DNA from: Fusobacterium sp.
GTDB taxonomy: Bacteria > Fusobacteriota > Fusobacteriia > Fusobacteriales > Fusobacteriaceae
Direction of reading: 5' to 3'
NCBI GenBank assembly: GCA_041668805.1
Contig: JBAYCK010000001.1
Coordinates: 1-47,723 of the forward strand
Length of the DNA: 47,723 bases
Notes under the pieces: generated by a model
What the model was told of the DNA's origin: nothing
The model's database searches: none
What the model saw: the letters and a program-made list of their open reading frames with translations, nothing else
Translations under genes and position numbers: made by a program
Part shown: piece by piece, positions 2,797-44,590 of the stretch
How the letters are laid out: every line of letters begins with the position of its first letter
Numbering within the stretch: position 1 is the first letter of the stretch

Positions 2797-3627
2797 ATGT
2801 TTAAAAAATTAGAACAAGTACATAAAAAATCAAAGGTTTATACAGATATAAAAAAAAGTTTTTTTAGCATTATTTTAGTTTCTATTCTTTTTAATTTTTT
2901 TATTTCAGGAATACTAAACTCAAATTATCAGTTAAATAAATTAAAGAATATTAATTTTGTTTCAGCTGAACTTCAAAATAATATTTCCACAAAGGAAAAG
3001 GGAGATATTGAAAAATATTTACTTAATATCCCAGAAATAAAAAAAGTTATTTATATGGATAGTTATATAGCTTTTAAAAATTTAGAGAGTGACTTAGGAA
3101 TTGTAATTCCTAGAGGTGAAAATCCACTTCCAGACTCAATGAGAATATATTTTAATAATAATTCTTCTCTAGAAAAGATACAAAATATTTTAGATGAAGA
3201 TAAAAGAATAAAGGAATATTTTATCAATGGAAGTTATTCAGAAGAAATAAATTCTTTATCAAAAATCTATAAATTAATGGAAAATATATTTATTACAGGA
3301 AGCTTATTTTTATTAATAACATTATATTTTATAGTATCTTTACAAATTCAAAGTGATTATTTAGCAATGATAATAAATGGTAAAAACGGTTCAAGAATAA
3401 AAATAAGAGCAAAAAATATAAATGTATTACAGTTTACTTTAGGGATTTTAGTTGGAACAGCAATTTATTTTAACTTATATTTTATTTTAAGGCAGTATAT
3501 ATTAAATTTAAATAATAATATTAACATTTTAAGTTTATTTCAAGTTCTTTATATTCAAAGCTTTTTAGTGCTTATTTTAATAATAATTGTTTGGAAATTT
3601 CCAGTGAAGAAGAGTGAAATTTTATGA
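2797..3627 (+). CDS. ftsX: Cell division protein FtsX-like permease
   Basis: TM, extracytoplasmic loop with ENPLPDS motif, then further TMs; directly upstream of envC. Confidence 0.8.
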   Translation: MFKKLEQVHKKSKVYTDIKKSFFSIILVSILFNFFISGILNSNYQLNKLKNINFVSAELQNNISTKEKGDIEKYLLNIPEIKKVIYMDSYIAFKNLESDLGIVIPRGENPLPDSMRIYFNNNSSLEKIQNILDEDKRIKEYFINGSYSEEINSLSKIYKLMENIFITGSLFLLITLYFIVSLQIQSDYLAMIINGKNGSRIKIRAKNINVLQFTLGILVGTAIYFNLYFILRQYILNLNNNINILSLFQVLYIQSFLVLILIIIVWKFPVKKSEIL

Positions 3628-26099: not shown

Positions 26100-26723
26100 T
26101 TATTTTCCCCAAGTGTTAGGAGATTTATTCCATTTTAATGCTATTTCTTTTTCTTCTGTAGTAAGATATTTTTTTTCAGCAGCAAGTTCAATAAGAGTTG
26201 TAAAATTAGAAATATTTTCAAGTTTTACATTTGCTTCTTTAAAGTTTTCAATAGCTTTTGGAAATTCATATGAAAATATAGCCACTACTTCAACTTCTTT
26301 TGCTCCAGCTTCTCTAGAAGCCTTTACAGCCTTAATTGAACTTCCCCCAGTGGAAATTAAATCTTCAATAACTATTACTTTTTTTCCTTGAAAATCAGCT
26401 CCCTCAATTTGTTGCCCAGCTCCATGATCTTTTTTAGCAGAACGAATATATGCCATTGGAACATTTAATCTTTCAGCGATAAATCCAGCCCAAGGAATTC
26501 CAGCAGTTGCAGTTCCTGCGATTATATCAAAATTTTTATTTTTTAAAATATCAATAAAACCATCTACAACAATTTTTCTTTCTTCAGGATAGCCAATCAT
26601 TTTTCTATTATCACAATAAATTGGACTTTTTATTCCAGAGACAAAGGTAAATGGCTCCTTTACATTTAATTTAACAGCTCCAACAGACAATAAAGAATTT
26701 GCAACATCTTTTGCTCTACTCAT
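26100..26723 (-). CDS. pyrE: Orotate phosphoribosyltransferase
   Basis: PFT..SGIKSPIYCDNR, AGTATAGIP, VIEDLISTGGS. Confidence 0.96.
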   Translation of the reverse strand: MSRAKDVANSLLSVGAVKLNVKEPFTFVSGIKSPIYCDNRKMIGYPEERKIVVDGFIDILKNKNFDIIAGTATAGIPWAGFIAERLNVPMAYIRSAKKDHGAGQQIEGADFQGKKVIVIEDLISTGGSSIKAVKASREAGAKEVEVVAIFSYEFPKAIENFKEANVKLENISNFTTLIELAAEKKYLTTEEKEIALKWNKSPNTWGK

Positions 26724-30415: not shown

Positions 30416-31486
30416 TTAATTAATTTTTTTTCCACAATAGTAACAGAATTGTTCATTATTTTTAATAACTACTTTATTATCTGTTTTTTCAAATTTTGTA
30501 ATGCAATTTTTGTTTGGGCAAAGACTAACATCTTTATTTATTACAGTATCATCATTTATTTTATCTGAAGAATGGATGTTAATTTTACCTAAAGCGATTC
30601 CAATCATAGCTTCTCTTATTTGAACTCCATTTTTAGCTTGTTCAAAGTATACAGCGTGTTTTGTGTCATCTAAATCGATATTAATTTCATTTACTCTAGG
30701 TAAAGGATGAAGAATTATCATATTTTCTTTGCATTTTCCTAGAATAACATTTTTTGAAATTTCAAATGAATTTTTTACTTTTTCATATAAATCTGGATTT
30801 TCAAATCTTTCCCTTTGAATTCTTGTCATATATAGAACATCAACTTCTTTTAGTATTTCTTTGTAATCAGAAAGTAGTTCATAGGGGATATTTTTTGAAT
30901 CTAATATTTTTTTAATTTCACTTGGTATTTGAATTTCTTCAGGAGCTACAAAATAAAATTTTTGTCCTGAAAATTTTGAAAGTGCTTCTGTTAAAGAATG
31001 CACTGTTCGTCCATATTTTAAATCTCCAACAAATGCAGTTGTAAGATTATCAATATTTTTTAGCTTATCTTTAATAGTATACAAATCTAGTAGAGTTTGG
31101 CTAGGGTGCTCATTAGAACCATCTCCAGCGTTAATGATTGGTATAGTTGAAATATCTTTGGCAAACTTAGCAGCCCCATCTCTAAGATGTCTCATAATGA
31201 TCACATCTGAATATCCTTCTATAACTTTTATTGTATCTCTTAGGCTTTCTCCTTTTTTCAATGAAGTTGCATCAGGGCTATCAAATCCAAGAACTTTTCC
31301 TCCTATTTTAAAACTAGCAGAAGTGAAAGAAAGTCTTGTTCTAGTTGATGGTTCAAAGAAAAGTGTTGCAATTATCTTATTTTCAATAAGTTTTTGTTGT
31401 GGGAAATTTTTTAGACTATTTGCTTTATTTAGTATTTCTAGAATTTCATTTTTACTAAAATTTTTAATAGAGATAATACTGTTCAT
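30416..31486 (-). CDS. pyrB: Aspartate carbamoyltransferase with fused C-terminal PyrI-type Zn domain
   Basis: FFEPSTRT, HPSQ, GDLK.GRT, RIQRER, HPLP; tail CPNKNCIT...CYYC. Confidence 0.95.
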   Translation of the reverse strand: MNSIISIKNFSKNEILEILNKANSLKNFPQQKLIENKIIATLFFEPSTRTRLSFTSASFKIGGKVLGFDSPDATSLKKGESLRDTIKVIEGYSDVIIMRHLRDGAAKFAKDISTIPIINAGDGSNEHPSQTLLDLYTIKDKLKNIDNLTTAFVGDLKYGRTVHSLTEALSKFSGQKFYFVAPEEIQIPSEIKKILDSKNIPYELLSDYKEILKEVDVLYMTRIQRERFENPDLYEKVKNSFEISKNVILGKCKENMIILHPLPRVNEINIDLDDTKHAVYFEQAKNGVQIREAMIGIALGKINIHSSDKINDDTVINKDVSLCPNKNCITKFEKTDNKVVIKNNEQFCYYCGKKIN

Positions 31487-31498
31487 AAATATCCTCCT

Positions 31499-31543
31499 AA
31501 AAAAAAAGAATAAAAATTACAAAATTAGTAATTTTTATTCTTT
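31499..31543 (-). terminator. Attenuator terminator of the pyr operon leader
   Basis: aaagaataaaaattac-taatttt-gtaatttttattcttt plus further Ts, directly before the pyrB RBS. Confidence 0.8.
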
Positions 31544-31633
31544 GGTAATATTGATAATATTAAAATAATTAAAAAAGGTAGAAATGAAATTCAAAAAAAA
31601 TATTTTAAAATCTTCAAATAAATATCTATTCAT
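31535..31633 (-). CDS. pyr operon leader peptide, 32 aa (MNRYLFEDFKIFFLNFISTFFNYFNIINITKE)
   Basis: GGAGGT RBS + ATG; 49/99 nt are U; stop codon lies in the terminator 5' arm. Confidence 0.75.
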   Translation of the reverse strand: MNRYLFEDFKIFFLNFISTFFNYFNIINITKE

Positions 31634-31663
31634 TTTTACCTCCGTTTTTTTTGCATTTTTACG

Positions 31664-31692
31664 ATTCTATCATATTTTGTGTTGGAAATCAA
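31664..31692 (-). promoter_or_regulatory. pyr operon promoter TTGATT-N17-TAGAAT with extended -10
   Basis: Minus strand TTGATT tccaacacaaaatatga TAGAAT. Confidence 0.65.
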
Positions 31693-37503: not shown

Positions 37504-40500
37504 TTAAATTTTTGAGATATCAAAAATATCAAGGTCTTTATCTTTGAAATGTCTTTTTTCTGTTTTTATAATAGCGTTTAATGTGTCAAAACAAGTAAGA
37601 ACTTCCACGCCATATTCAATAGCTATTCTTCTCATTTTAAATCCATCTCTTTGAGCATCATTCGCTTTAGTTGGTGTATTAACTATTAAATCTATATTAC
37701 CATGTTGTATGGCAGTTAAAATATTTGGAGTGCTTTCTCCGATTCTATTAATTTGAGAAGTTTTTATGTTGTGGTTATTAAGATACTTAGCTGTTCCAGT
37801 GGTAGCTAACAATTCACAATTTAATTCTATTAATTTTTTTGCTATTGGTAAGAATTCATCTTTATCTTTATCTCTTATTGTAAGAAGAATCCTTTTTCCA
37901 GATACTTTATTAGCTCTTTTCCCTGCAATTAATCCCTTATAGATTGCTTCTTCTATAGTATTTCCAACTCCTAAAACTTCCCCTGTAGATCTCATTTCAG
38001 GACCTAATGAAATTTCAACATCTCCAAGTTTTTCAGTTGAGAAAACAGGAACTTTTACTGCTACTAAATTAGGTTTTTTATATATTCCAGGTTTATAGCC
38101 AATTTCTTCTAATGTTTGTCCTAAAATTATTTTTGTTGCAATTTCAATTACAGGCATACCAGATATTTTAGAAATATACGGTACTGTTCTAGAAGATCTT
38201 GGGTTAACTTCAATAACGTATAATTCATTTTCATAGGCAATAAATTGAATATTCATCATTCCTTTTATTTCTAAAGCTTTAGAAATTTCTTTTGAAATTC
38301 TAAGAACTTCTTCTTCAGTTCCTTTATATAGATTTTGCTGAGGGTAGACAGTTATTGAATCACCAGAATGTACTCCAGCTCTTTCTAAATGTTCCATAAT
38401 ACCAGGAATAATTATATTTTCTCCGTCACAAATTGCATCAACCTCAAGCTCAATACCATTTAAATATTTATCGATAAGTACAGGATTTTCAGGATCTCTA
38501 TCAAATGATGATTCTAAGTATTTAACAAGATTGTATTCATCGTGGCATATTTCCATACCTTGTCCTCCTAAAACATAAGAAGGTCTAACTAGTACTGGAT
38601 AGTTAATTTCATTGGCGATTTTTATACCATTTTCAATATTCCAAACAGCTCTTCCTTTAGGTCTTTTAATGTTTAGTTCTTCCATCATTTCTTCAAACTT
38701 TTCTCTATCTTCAGCTTCATCAATTTTTTCAGCAGAAGTTCCTAGTATTTTAATATTACGACTAGATAGTTCCTTTGCAAGTTTAATTGCAGTTTGTCCT
38801 CCAAATTGAAGGATAACTCCTTCAGGTTTTTCTTTTTCAATTATATTCATAACATCTTCTATTACTAATGGCTCAAAATATAGTTTATCTGCTGTGGAAA
38901 AATCTGTTGAAACTGTTTCAGGATTGTTATTAATAATAATACTTTCAATTCCTAATTTTTTCAAAGTTTTTACAGCATGGACTGTACAATAATCAAATTC
39001 TATTCCTTGTCCAATTCTTATGGGACCAGAACCAATAACTATTATTTTTTTCTTATTAGATACTGTAACTTCGTCATATTCGTCATAAGTTGAATAGTAG
39101 TATGATGAGTCAGCTGAAAATTCTCCAGCACAAGTATCTACCATTTTATAAACTGGATAAATATTATTTTCTTTTCTTTTTCTTTCAATATCCTTTTCAG
39201 AAACATTTATAAATTCAGCTATTCCTTTATCTGAAAATCCTTTTCTTTTTAGTTTTCTTAAGTATTCAGGTTTGAAATCTTTATATTTAGTTTTCTTTAA
39301 TATTTCTTCTTGTTTTACAATCCATTCTAATTTTTCCATAAAAAATTTGTCAATACCTGTAATTTTTTGTAATTTTTCTTTTATGTATCCTCTTCTTAAC
39401 ATTTCAGCTACAATAAATAATCTTATGTCATCAGGTTTTATAACAGCATCTTTAAGTTCATCCATTGACATTTTATTAACAGATGGATGATTAAAGTTGA
39501 ATCTTCCTATTTCTAGAGAACGGATACCTTTAAGTAAAGCAGCTTCAAAATTATTTCCAATGGCCATAATCTCACCTGTAGCCATCATTTGTGTTCCTAA
39601 TTTTTTATTAGCTTTTTTAAATTTATCAAATGGCCATTTAGGAATTTTAACTACTATATAATCTAAAGTTGGTTCAAAACAGGCAAAGGTTTTTTCAGTT
39701 ACTTCGTTTTTAACTTCGTCTAATGTATAACCTAGAGAAAGTCTAGTAGCAACTCTTGCAATAGGATATCCTGTAGCCTTAGAAGCAAGAGCAGAAGATC
39801 TAGAAACCCGAGGGTTTATTTCTATAATAGCATATTGGAAAGATTTTGGGTTTAAAGCAAATTGAACATTACATCCTCCAATAACTCCTATTTCATTTAC
39901 TATTTTTAATGCAGATGTTCTAAGTATTTGATATTCTCTATCTGATAAAGTTTGAGATGGAGCAACAACAATGGAATCTCCAGTATGGATACCTACAGGG
40001 TCAATATTTTCCATGTTACACACTATAATGGAATTTCCATTTTTATCTCTGATAACCTCATATTCAATTTCTTTCCATCCTAGAATTGATTTTTCAATCA
40101 AAACTTGTCCAACTCTAGAAAGGCTAAGACCTTTAGAAAGAATATTTTCCAATTCAGTTGGGTTATGGGCAAATCCTCCCCCAGTTCCTCCAAGTGTATA
40201 AGCTGGTCTTACAACAACAGGATAACCAATTACTCTAGCAACTTCAAAACCTTCTTTTAAAGTTTCTACAATTTTACTTTCAATAATAGGTTCATCTATT
40301 TTTTCCATAGCTTCTCTAAAAAGTTCTCTATCTTCTCCCCTTTTGATTGAGTCAATGGAAGTTCCCAAAACTTGAACATTATATTTGTCTAAAATTCCAT
40401 TTTCTTTAAGTTCCACAGCCATATTTAAAGCTGTTTGACCTCCCATTCCAGCTAAAATTGAATCTGGTCTTTCTTTAGCTATTACTTTTTCAACAAATTC

Positions 40501-40710
40501 CAATGTAATTGGTTCTATATAAATTCTGTCAGCAACAGCTTTATCAGTCATTATTGTTGCAGGATTTGAATTAATTAAAACAACTTCAATCCCTTCTTTT
40601 TTTAAAGTTTCACATGCTTGTGTACCTGAATAGTCAAATTCAGCAGCTTGCCCTATTATTATTGGTCCAGAACCTATAACTAATGTTTTCTTTATATTTT
40701 TATCTATCAT
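37504..40710 (-). CDS. carB: Carbamoyl-phosphate synthase large subunit
   Basis: [17 protein letters not shown], duplicated ATP-grasp (VRPAYTLGG / VRPSYVLGG), MGS tail. Confidence 0.98.
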
Positions 40711-40775
40711 TAAAAACCTCCAATTAAAATATTAATAATTAAATTTAATAAATACTATAATAATTATTTCTATAT

Positions 40776-41834
40776 TTAAAATTTATATTCAAATAATTTT
40801 AAAAAATCATCGAATAAGTAATTATTATCTTCTGGTCCAGGACAACCTTCAGGATGATATTGAACACTCATAATATGAAATTCATCACTTTTTAATCCTT
40901 CTATAGAGTTGTCATTTAGATTTATATGAGTAACTTCCATAGAATCAGGAACCTTATCAACAACATATCCATGATTTTGTGAAGTTATATGAATTTTATT
41001 TCTCTCTAAATCTTTTACAGGATGATTACATCCTCTGTGTCCATATTTTAATTTTGTTGTTGAACCTCCTAAAGCTAAAGCAATTAGTTGTTGTCCTAAG
41101 CAAATTCCAGCTATAGGTAATTTTCCAATTATTTTTTTTATTTCAAGGATAGAATTTTCTAAGTCAGTTGGGTCCCCAGGTCCATTTGATAAGAACAAAC
41201 CATCTAAATTATATTTTAAAATTTCATCAGCTGTTGTATCCCAAGGAAAAACAGTTAAATTACAGTTTCTATTTTGGAAATTTCTAAGAATATTTCTTTT
41301 TATACCAAAATCCATAACTCCAATTTTTTTACCATATCCTTTAATTTCATAAATTTCTTTAGTACTAACTTTTGCAACTGCTGTAGAATTATTAAAATTA
41401 CTAAATCTTTCATATAATTCTTTTTCAGTTAAATCCTCAGCAGTTATAATTGCTTTCATAGCACCTTCTTCTCTAATGATTTTAACTAGTTGTCTAGTGT
41501 CGACTCCTTTAAAAGCTACAATATTATTTTGTCTTAAAAATCCGTCTAAAGTCATTTCACATCTGAAATTATTGGGAAGTTTAGCATCTTCTTTTATAAT
41601 GAATCCCTTTAGATAAGAACGGTCAGATTCCATATCTTCTAAGTTAATACCATAGTTTCCTATCATTGGATATGTCATTACAACAATTTGACCGCAATAA
41701 GACGGATCAGTTAAAAGTTCTTGATAACCTGTCATTCCAGTATTAAAAACTATTTCACCAACTGTTTCACCAAGTTCTCCAAATATTTTTCCTTCAAAAA
41801 TATTTCCATTTTCAAGAATTAATTTTCCTTTCAT
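40776..41834 (-). CDS. carA: Carbamoyl-phosphate synthase small subunit
   Basis: GEIVFNTGMTGYQE, LSNGPGDP, GICLG, SQNHG, QYHPE; ATG at 41834 after GGGAGG. Confidence 0.97.
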   Translation of the reverse strand: MKGKLILENGNIFEGKIFGELGETVGEIVFNTGMTGYQELLTDPSYCGQIVVMTYPMIGNYGINLEDMESDRSYLKGFIIKEDAKLPNNFRCEMTLDGFLRQNNIVAFKGVDTRQLVKIIREEGAMKAIITAEDLTEKELYERFSNFNNSTAVAKVSTKEIYEIKGYGKKIGVMDFGIKRNILRNFQNRNCNLTVFPWDTTADEILKYNLDGLFLSNGPGDPTDLENSILEIKKIIGKLPIAGICLGQQLIALALGGSTTKLKYGHRGCNHPVKDLERNKIHITSQNHGYVVDKVPDSMEVTHINLNDNSIEGLKSDEFHIMSVQYHPEGCPGPEDNNYLFDDFLKLFEYKF

Positions 41835-41857: not shown

Positions 41858-41888
41858 AAAAAAAAAGATATAACATTAAGTTATATCT
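41858..41888 (-). terminator. Attenuator terminator of the carAB leader
   Basis: agatataac-ttaat-gttatatct followed by 8 T. Confidence 0.75.
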
Positions 41889-41997
41889 GAAATTCAAAAT
41901 AAATATTAAAAAAATAAGAAAAAAATGAAAAAATAAATAAAATGTAGGATTCTTTTAAATTGCTATAATATTTAAAAAAACATCTAAATTTATACAT
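41881..41997 (-). CDS. carAB leader peptide, 38 aa (MYKFRCFFKYYSNLKESYILFIFSFFSYFFNIYFEFQI)
   Basis: AAAGGGGG RBS + ATG; 65/117 nt are U; TAA inside the terminator 5' arm. Confidence 0.72.
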   Translation of the reverse strand: MYKFRCFFKYYSNLKESYILFIFSFFSYFFNIYFEFQI

Positions 41998-42026: not shown

Positions 42027-42055
42027 AGTATACTATAAAAAAAAAATAATGTCAA
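42027..42055 (-). promoter_or_regulatory. carAB promoter TTGACA-N17-TATACT
   Basis: Near-consensus sigma70 promoter 30 nt upstream of the leader ATG. Confidence 0.75.
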
Positions 42056-43224: not shown

Positions 43225-43311
43225 ATGTTAAAGAATATAAGGAGACAAAGGAATATTAAGTTGGATTTAAAATATTCATATAGTCTTTTTAGGTTGCTAT
43301 TTAATAGATAA
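43225..43311 (+). CDS. Putative leader peptide, 28 aa (MLKNIRRQRNIKLDLKYSYSLFRLLFNR)
   Basis: AAGGAG RBS; lies between the promoter and a leader terminator; 5 Arg codons, 3 of them AGG. Confidence 0.6.
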   Translation: MLKNIRRQRNIKLDLKYSYSLFRLLFNR

Positions 43312-43358
43312 AAGTGAGATTAATTTTAATAAATATTTTTTTAATATATATAAAAGTT

Positions 43359-43397
43359 AAAACCATTTTTAGATAAAATCTAAAAATGGTTTTTTTT
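43359..43397 (+). terminator. Leader (attenuator) terminator before the amidohydrolase
   Basis: aaaaccatttttagat-aaa-atctaaaaatggtttt plus T run. Confidence 0.8.
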
Positions 43398-43426
43398 GTT
43401 TGAAAAATAAAAAAAGGTAGGTAAGT

Positions 43427-44590
43427 ATGTTAGAAAATTTAGAAAAAGAATTTGAAAAAATATTTTCAGAATTAAAAGTTTTAAACGAATATCTATATAA
43501 GAATCCAGAAATTGGAAGAAAGGAATTTAAATCCTCAAAGGCACATATTGAATTTTTAGAAAAAAAAGGTTTTAAAGTAACAAAAGAATATGTGAATATA
43601 AAAACTGCTTACAGAGCTGAATACAACAGTGGTAAAGAAGGACCATGTATTTGTTTTATGGCTGAATATGATGCCTTACCTGAAATAGGACATGGTTGTG
43701 GGCATAATATTTTAGGAATAACAAGTATAGGAGCTGGTATAATGTTAAAAGAGTTTATAAATAATTATGGAGGAAAAATTGTTGTTTTAGGAACTCCAGC
43801 AGAGGAAAATTTTGGAGCAAAAGTGGATATGGCAAAGGCTAATGTTTTTGATGATATTGATGTGGCAATAATATCTCATCCAACAGGAAGATGTCATAAA
43901 AAAAGTTCATCTAGTCAAGCTATTGAAGCTTTGGAATTTAAATTCATAGGGAAAACAGCCCATGCAGCAGGGGATCCATATAATGGGATTAATGCACTAG
44001 ATGCAGTTATTCAATTGTTTAATAGTGTAAATGCTTTAAGACAACAAACAAAAGCAACATCAAAAATACATGGAATAATTTCAAATGGAGGAGAAGCTGC
44101 AAATATTATTCCAGATTTAGGAGTAGCTAATTTTTATGTTAGAGATAAAACAACAAAGGAAATGTATAATTTAAGTGAAAAAGTTAAAAATTGTGCTAAA
44201 GGAGCAGCAATGGCAACAGGATGTTCTTTAGAAATAAATAATTATGAATATACTTTTAAACATTTAATAACAAATGAAGTATTATCAGAAGCTTACACTA
44301 AAAATCTTGAGAAAATAGGAGTAAAGGAAATAGAAATGTCTAATTCAGATGGATCTACAGATGCAGGAGATGTTAGTCATATCTGTCCTACAATCCATTC
44401 TTACTTTCCAATATCTTCAAAGGATTTAATTGGGCATAGCGTAGAATTTGCTAGGGCAAGTGTAACAAAAGAAGCTTATAAAGGAATGAAGGAAGCTATA
44501 TTTGCAATGGTATTAACAGGAATAGAGTTAATACAGGATAAAAAATTATTAAATGCAGTGGAAAATGAATTTAACCAAATAAATAACTAA
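43427..44590 (+). CDS. M20 family amidohydrolase (ACY1L2/AbgB-like)
   Basis: NPE.G..E, AEYDALP.IGHGCGHN, GTPAEE, AHAA..P..G.NALDA, GSTD.GDVS. Confidence 0.9.
   Translation: MLENLEKEFEKIFSELKVLNEYLYKNPEIGRKEFKSSKAHIEFLEKKGFKVTKEYVNIKTAYRAEYNSGKEGPCICFMAEYDALPEIGHGCGHNILGITSIGAGIMLKEFINNYGGKIVVLGTPAEENFGAKVDMAKANVFDDIDVAIISHPTGRCHKKSSSSQAIEALEFKFIGKTAHAAGDPYNGINALDAVIQLFNSVNALRQQTKATSKIHGIISNGGEAANIIPDLGVANFYVRDKTTKEMYNLSEKVKNCAKGAAMATGCSLEINNYEYTFKHLITNEVLSEAYTKNLEKIGVKEIEMSNSDGSTDAGDVSHICPTIHSYFPISSKDLIGHSVEFARASVTKEAYKGMKEAIFAMVLTGIELIQDKKLLNAVENEFNQINN

Follow-up and report, generated by a model that had tools for sequence, protein, structure and literature searches.

The window analysed here, a stretch of 47,723 nucleotides from the genome of a Fusobacterium sp. 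(79% complete, referred to below as G000), carries on its minus strand a pyrimidine operon in the order pyrB-pyrK-pyrD-pyrF-pyrC-pyrE, which reaches position 26100 and has hflX upstream; no pyrR gene lies in this operon. Between hflX and pyrB is a compact leader (Table 1). An initial annotation had placed a promoter, a ribosome binding site (RBS), a U-rich ORF of 32 codons (31633-31535, with U8 and U6 runs), a hairpin, a U-tract and the pyrB RBS here; each of these elements is present at its claimed minus-strand position, and the U fraction of the ORF was measured as 0.49. The PyrB tail, of ~50 residues, resembles the metal-binding domain of PyrI alone (PF02748, under the cut-off), and in genera g3, g5, g6, g8 and g21 the PyrB match extends no further than about residue 303.

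The leader promoter overlaps the stop codon of hflX, which lies over the −35. Promoter-like sites are as frequent in shuffled sequence (7 found vs 6.7 expected), so the promoter by itself says little, and what supports it is conservation: a score of at least 11.5, 30–43 nt from the start of the upstream ORF (uORF), recurs in most relatives. The uORF has U runs of 4, 8, 6 and 4 ahead of the stem, and 56 of 11,579 coding windows of 99 nt in the same genome are as U-rich. Its stop codon sits 6 nt inside the 5′ arm of the hairpin, and the pyrB RBS comes after the U9 tract. Folding of the leader beats all 200 shuffles (z −3.0). The stem has two G-C pairs only, for which reason a standard terminator scan gave no entry here, and its three outer pairs draw on the U-tract. 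Because the distance from the U-tract to pyrB is 12 nt, the operon would have to be reached by read-through.

Table 1. Features of the two pyrimidine leaders in the window, and amino-acid leader candidates in the same genome
Feature	Position	Strand	Details and basis
Promoter of pyrB leader, sigma-70 type, extended −10	31664..31692	-	TTGATT-17-TAGAAT with extended TG; predicted
Shine-Dalgarno (SD) of pyrB leader ORF	31638..31643	-	GGAGGT; anti-SD duplex −10.4 kcal/mol
pyrB leader uORF	31535..31633	-	32 codons, 49% U; open reading frame and comparison with relatives
Predicted pairing partner of the pyrB leader's RBS	31574..31588	-	Putative kinetic gate; moderate support
Terminator-like hairpin and U9 of pyrB leader	31499..31543	-	Hairpin 31543-31505 (16 bp, −14.6 kcal/mol), U9 31507-31499; folding, covariation in 38 relatives
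pyrB, E. coli-type ATCase catalytic chain	30416..31486	-	C-terminal PyrI_C-like tail; profile matches
Promoter of carA leader	42027..42055	-	TTGACA-17-TATACT; predicted
carA leader uORF	41881..41997	-	38 codons, 56% U; SD ~42010-42003; stop within hairpin 5′ arm
Terminator-like hairpin and U9 of carA leader	41858..41888	-	Hairpin 41888-41866 (9 bp, −8.9 kcal/mol)
carA and carB, carbamoyl-phosphate synthase	37504..41834	-	carA 41834-40776, carB 40710-37504
Amino-acid leader candidates	C62:6294(-), C150:1397(+), C104:1500(-), C73:2320(+), C84:2270(+), C28:6452(+), C67:4192(-), C86:3962(-), C163:186(+)		

The same window contains a second copy of the element, which the initial annotation had missed: a leader ahead of carA, whose upstream neighbour is a divergent gene. 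Elsewhere in the window, an Arg-rich uORF of 28 codons with a terminator (43225-43427, plus strand) precedes an M20 peptidase-family gene (43427-44590).

An Rfam search of the pyrB leader returned chance-level matches only. Across 16 leader loci no aptamer or T-box was matched, in a search that recovered SAM, ZMP-ZTP and PyrR controls. A low-depth contig from an RNA library covers 31376-31543, across the U-tract, a second RNA contig ends at 31640, and in two runs most of the pyrB leader is uncovered; these are assembled contigs, with DNA carry-over possible, and neither transcript ends nor levels, translation or regulation can be read from them.

Conservation of the leader and its relation to PyrR

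The pyrB type of the window is present in 102 of 131 genomes of the Fusobacteriaceae, a comparison in which the named relatives are Fusobacterium and Cetobacterium. Regions upstream of pyrB were scored by a single script. To pass, a region had to combine a promoter score with an SD duplex, a hairpin followed by a U-tract and, for the pyrB set, a uORF of at least 10 codons; neither where the stop codon lies nor the U content was a selection criterion. One and the same script was used to define the leaders and to count them. As the relatives are not independent, the counts that follow are descriptive. One genome (G140, pyrB without its start) was left out, L022 was replaced by L131, and the carA set excludes the carA loci of g20 and many other listed loci. 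Identical sequences were merged (76 pyrB, 70 carA) for the analyses of antiterminators, similarity to pyrL, RBS pairing and divergence.

The pyrB leader passes the script in 80 of 101 family loci, in 8 genera; of 12 loci from other families, 1 passes. At carA, spread over 13 genera, the leader passes in 71 of 84 loci, and three of the misses show a leader by eye. Genera g3, g5, g10 and g23 have pyrB within a carAB-pyr operon and the leader ahead of carA instead. At least one of the two leaders is found in 93 of 101 genomes; of the other eight, four belong to g22, three have the locus near a contig end and one is without its carA in the set. The sequence upstream of the leader changes among genera and the leader is retained. 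Three second copies of carA are without it; the one inspected lies behind genes that, by their motifs, are probably argC/argJ-like. The leader is a real element, specific to pyrimidine genes and spread across the family.

What is conserved within it is less the stop codon's position than the openness of the frame. In 81 of 81 pyrB leaders the frame set by the SD stays open at least until 12 nt short of the stem; the other two frames do so in 10 and 6, and dinucleotide shuffles in ~8%. Among the carA leaders, the SD-led frame is open to the stem in 71 of 71 (stop at −7 or later), against 3 and 2. The stop codon of the initial annotation, placed within the stem, is correctly located here, yet the arrangement is not invariant: among the 81 pyrB leaders the stop lies from −11 to +82 nt relative to the 5′ end of the stem (62 inside, 10 before, 9 after). 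Hence what is conserved is that the frame has no stop until ~12 nt from the stem, and a stop within the stem is typical and not required. The uORFs are 25–87 codons long, and their frame relative to the stem varies even within genera.

Several loci depart from the usual arrangement. The terminators of L015 (G002) and L116 (G109) lie 167 and 120 nt from pyrB, compared with the usual 10–41 nt; an internal promoter is possible at L015. Several g2 genomes have pyrB and carA side by side in divergent orientation (G125 C112, G126 C46, G122 C118, G124 C84), and each gene had its own leader in all three checked. Outside the family, the leader layout is present at L023 (family f3) and L051 (named Leptotrichiaceae); genus g12 (L024-L030) and L050 have a promoter near pyrB and no leader. 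Two Brachyspira records (L045, L048) carry a fusobacterial-type pyrB at 57% identity, and ~180 nt before position 3001 they show a similar hairpin, a promoter and a U-rich open frame with a weak SD; transfer of gene and leader together is possible.

It is informative to set this distribution beside that of PyrR. The PyrR protein exceeds its cut-off (NF003549) in 20 of 131 genomes, all within genus g20 (20 of 22), and the PyrR RNA site (RF00515) was matched in 21 of 131, of which 20 are again in g20 (20 of 22) and one is a weak match elsewhere (E 8.8e-4). The search bears out the earlier reading of the pyr operon as lacking PyrR: none exceeds the cut-off in G000, a genome 79% complete, in its 15 congeners, or in any of the 109 family genomes outside g20, and no PyrR binding loop was found in 16 leader loci. 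Conversely, none of the 22 g20 genomes has the leader-linked pyrB type. Among the genomes searched, then, PyrR and the leader are mutually exclusive, which may reflect a single evolutionary event. F. nucleatum carries a PyrR annotation according to PMC9848294 and is the sole fusobacterial genome included in the screen of PMC8632094; g20 probably corresponds to the F. nucleatum group. Genus g22 has neither PyrR nor leader (0 of 4 pyrB and 0 of 3 carA loci; L092, L101, L104, L105, L182-L184). At L104 a very short hairpin precedes pyrB.

Composition, folding and pairing of the leader

The 50 nt ahead of the stem have a U fraction of 0.54 in the pyrB leaders and 0.57 in the carA leaders, compared with 0.33 at 151 gene-end terminators, and the G fraction ahead of the pyrB stem is 0.04, compared with 0.115 at other terminators. 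When 44 short ORFs of G000 that are SD-led and promoter-proximal are ranked by U content, the carA and pyrB leaders take the first two places. The U content derives almost entirely from which amino acids are encoded (observed 0.467; 0.454 would be expected given codon usage), and a synonymous-codon test does not separate U-richness from amino-acid choice. The dN/dS of the uORF is 0.46–0.53, below most values for the other frames (0.55–1.13), and a weak constraint at the level of the peptide is possible. The peptide sequence is not conserved, and the leader peptides have no Pfam or NCBIfam match.

The terminator was aligned for 38 of the 68 distinct terminators, and in this alignment 96.2% of cells pair, against 42–60% after sliding; two-sided changes number 46, against 17.6 in shuffles. 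The initial annotation saw no alternative antiterminator, and folding predictions over 76 leaders agree: structures competing with the hairpin have a mean z of 0.25, with 2 of 76 below −1.65 and 0 of 76 competitive. With no antiterminator predicted, something must physically block the hairpin, and the open frame that has been kept points to the ribosome.

A further, modest signal concerns the RBS of the uORF. The body of the leader is predicted to pair better with its own RBS than with those of other genera, by −2.3 kcal/mol for pyrB (67 of 76 leaders, 9 of 9 groups) and by −1.7 kcal/mol for carA (54 of 70, 11 of 13 groups), the pairing partner lying ~47–70 nt past the start codon. The signal is missing in the window's own carA leader (+3.05 kcal/mol).

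Proposed mechanism and its alternatives

In E. coli pyrL, low UTP makes the polymerase pause and the ribosome catches up. We consider it likely that the pyrB and carA leaders are UTP-sensing, ribosome-gated attenuators of the pyrL type with an unrelated sequence. With ample UTP, the polymerase would run ahead, the hairpin would fold and the polymerase would stop at the U-tract, ~12–40 nt upstream of the first gene. At low UTP it would instead crawl along the ~50-nt U-rich, G-poor track, which in the window corresponds to the second half of the pyrB uORF, a predicted polymerase brake; a ribosome loaded at the strong SD could then close the gap and cover the 5′ arm, giving read-through. More tentatively, the helix between the U-track and the leader's own RBS might confine ribosome loading to the time before the track has been made, and so sharpen the switch. 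Consistent with the ribosome's proposed role, ribosomes near a terminator repress termination there, as described in PMC4824070, and E. coli pyrL acts through coupling in the account of PMC5021804.

The initial annotation had extended the same logic to functional transcription-translation coupling across the lineage. The attenuator anatomy supports the pyrL-like logic, but lineage-wide coupling is too broad a claim. In PMC13323073, citing Johnson et al. 2020, the Fusobacteria are classed as runaway at the level of the phylum, the coupled/runaway split being given to entire phyla from terminator spacing. In G000, 68 of 147 terminators (46%) lie at most 12 nt from the stop codon, vs 1 of 12 in a small E. 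coli sample (p 0.013), under a strict definition chosen after a loose one had been tried; the loose definition, which includes false hairpins reaching into genes, gives 137 of 229 vs 18 of 39 in 300 kb of E. coli (p 0.12). The purine content of genes is 58% in G000 and 51% in the E. coli sample. Short stop-to-stem spacing is thus common at ordinary gene ends in G000, and a stop near a stem is not in itself diagnostic. Given a lineage that is predicted to be runaway, coupling at these leaders would be local and made by the U-track; a leader that produces coupling at its own site, by way of its long U-track, is the better reading than one that signals the lineage default. Pausing synchronises a leader ribosome with the polymerase even in B. 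subtilis, according to PMC6851288.

It is also worth considering other leaders in the genome. Unannotated amino-acid leader candidates, whose codons include those for Trp, for His, for Ile, for Arg or for Pro, stand ahead of aroF, hisZ, ilvD, argC, brnQ, putP and amino-acid transporters (Table 1), and no T-box was matched in the six that were tested. Trp codons occur ahead of aroF and a transporter-like gene, His runs ahead of hisZ and a gene for an amino-acid ABC binding protein, Ile/Leu-rich leaders ahead of ilvD and brnQ, Arg codons ahead of argC and an ABC binding protein gene, and Pro codons ahead of putP. Ribosome-dependent leaders therefore seem to be common in G000, which would be striking for a lineage predicted to be runaway. 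The genome also has a SAM riboswitch (L149:50-137) and a ZMP-ZTP riboswitch (L151:119-200), both over the gathering score, and, ahead of pyrG (L148, G000 C41), a promoter-like site and a hairpin whose loop and tail are U-rich, where no uORF is obvious.

The abundance of such leaders bears on the reading that the pyrimidine leader senses translation itself, whether the supply of Phe-, Ile- or Leu-tRNA or the speed of the ribosome, rather than UTP, so that a slowed ribosome would allow the terminator to form and pyrimidine synthesis would be tied to growth. Phe accounts for 19% of the leader codons, Ile for 14% and Leu for 12%, and the amino-acid origin of the U-richness and the dN/dS of ~0.5 fit such a role; the share of Phe, however, varies between 8 and 29% and forms no fixed block, the amino-acid leaders of the genome stop 40–116 nt short of their terminators and so have another geometry, the aromatic operon already has its own Trp-codon leader, and the element follows pyrimidine genes and is missing from the three second carA copies. 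We regard this reading as unlikely. A pyrimidine-sensing RNA-binding or antitermination protein other than PyrR, acting on the U-track or on a conserved motif before the stem and leaving the uORF a secondary role, appears somewhat more doubtful still: it would account for the lower divergence of the last 50 nt before the stem relative to the 5′ part (0.08 vs 0.13) and for the TTTTAATAT-like motif, present in 41 of 81 leaders and read in differing frames, but it would find no predicted antiterminator to stabilise, and all 152 counted leaders retain a strong SD together with an open frame.

Two further possibilities are, in our view, very improbable. One is that the U-rich track is chiefly a Rho target shielded by the translating ribosome, with the hairpin as a back-up. 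The rho gene is present in G000, the G fraction of the track is as low as given above, and PMC13323073 reports that pausing and the action of Rho are favoured where the sequence is rich in T and that T-richness promotes Rho termination in B. subtilis; against this, the C content is also low (~0.05–0.10), the track is short and a covarying intrinsic terminator follows it directly. The other, which we hold to be just as improbable, is that nothing here is regulated, the hairpin being a leaky constitutive damper or the terminator of hflX and the uORF encoding a small hydrophobic protein or arising by chance. The overlap of the hflX stop codon with the −35, with no other hairpin between hflX and the leader, would suit this, as would a 19-residue hydropathy of at least 1.6 in 16 of 81 pyrB and 33 of 71 carA peptides. 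It is countered by the retention of the leader behind differing upstream sequences, by the divergent gene that the window's carA leader faces, by peptides that range from 25 to 87 codons with no domain match, and by the 12 nt between the U-tract and pyrB, which leave no space for another promoter.

The UTP-sensing attenuator can be placed within a wider picture, which we hold to be less likely than not: a family-wide NTP sensor that the Fusobacteriaceae, predicted to be a runaway lineage, would have evolved themselves, in which a long U-rich brake and an RBS-closing helix would create coupling on demand at pyrB and carAB by letting a ribosome load and reach the polymerase at low UTP alone, and which would have been swapped for PyrR in one genus.

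Comparison with known attenuation systems

The closest counterpart is E. coli pyrL (b4246), which likewise has a promoter, a strong SD and a short ORF running into a terminator just ahead of pyrB, a distance from start to stem of 88 nt (90 nt here), no antiterminator, and a control proposed to depend on ribosome-polymerase spacing (as treated in PMC5021804 and PMC4824070). The initial annotation had called the leader unrelated to pyrL in sequence, and comparison of 152 leaders agrees, with no significant similarity (best blastn E 2.5, best blastp E 7.4); judged by sequence, the fusobacterial leader is not a pyrL homologue. It differs from pyrL in the U fraction before the stem (0.54–0.57 vs 0.28), in its long, A-U-rich stem, in its additional presence at carAB and in occurring in a phylum classed as runaway. 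E. coli pyrBI also uses stuttering of the AAUUU type, and E. coli carAB is controlled by transcription factors and stuttering, in the account of PMC6524683. Reiterative transcription of this kind at pyrB was rejected, as a UUU run after the −10 is missing in 80 of 81 pyrB leaders and present in 1; in the carA leaders, whose start sites are unmapped, TTT occurs 4–14 nt after the −10 in 27 of 71.

PyrR attenuation of the B. subtilis type shares the control of a pyr operon by premature termination and is found in the same family (g20), but the leader-bearing genomes have no PyrR, binding loop or antiterminator. The trpL, hisL, ilv and pheL attenuators of amino-acid operons share the uORF and terminator; unlike them, the pyr leaders reach or enter the stem and have no cognate codon cluster, whereas the amino-acid leaders stop 40–116 nt before it. 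The B. subtilis tlrB (yxjB) leader, as presented in PMC6851288, is similar in that pausing creates a local synchrony in a runaway organism; its signal, however, is antibiotic stalling with NusG-dependent pausing and not nucleotide supply.

The logic of attenuation is itself textbook, and a literature search, which left most subscription papers uncovered, found no published description of the fusobacterial leader. The leader adds unannotated ORFs to these genomes and could explain pyrimidine regulation in fusobacteria without PyrR, such as Cetobacterium and several Fusobacterium groups. In its simplest form the proposed logic requires that a ribosome follow the polymerase closely, which makes the two loci a compact test of local coupling in runaway cells, for which ~150 naturally occurring variants and a PyrR-using sister genus are ready controls. 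If the wider picture sketched above holds, the pyrL-like leaders, together with the many amino-acid leaders of the same genome, would suggest that ribosome-based attenuation thrives under runaway transcription.
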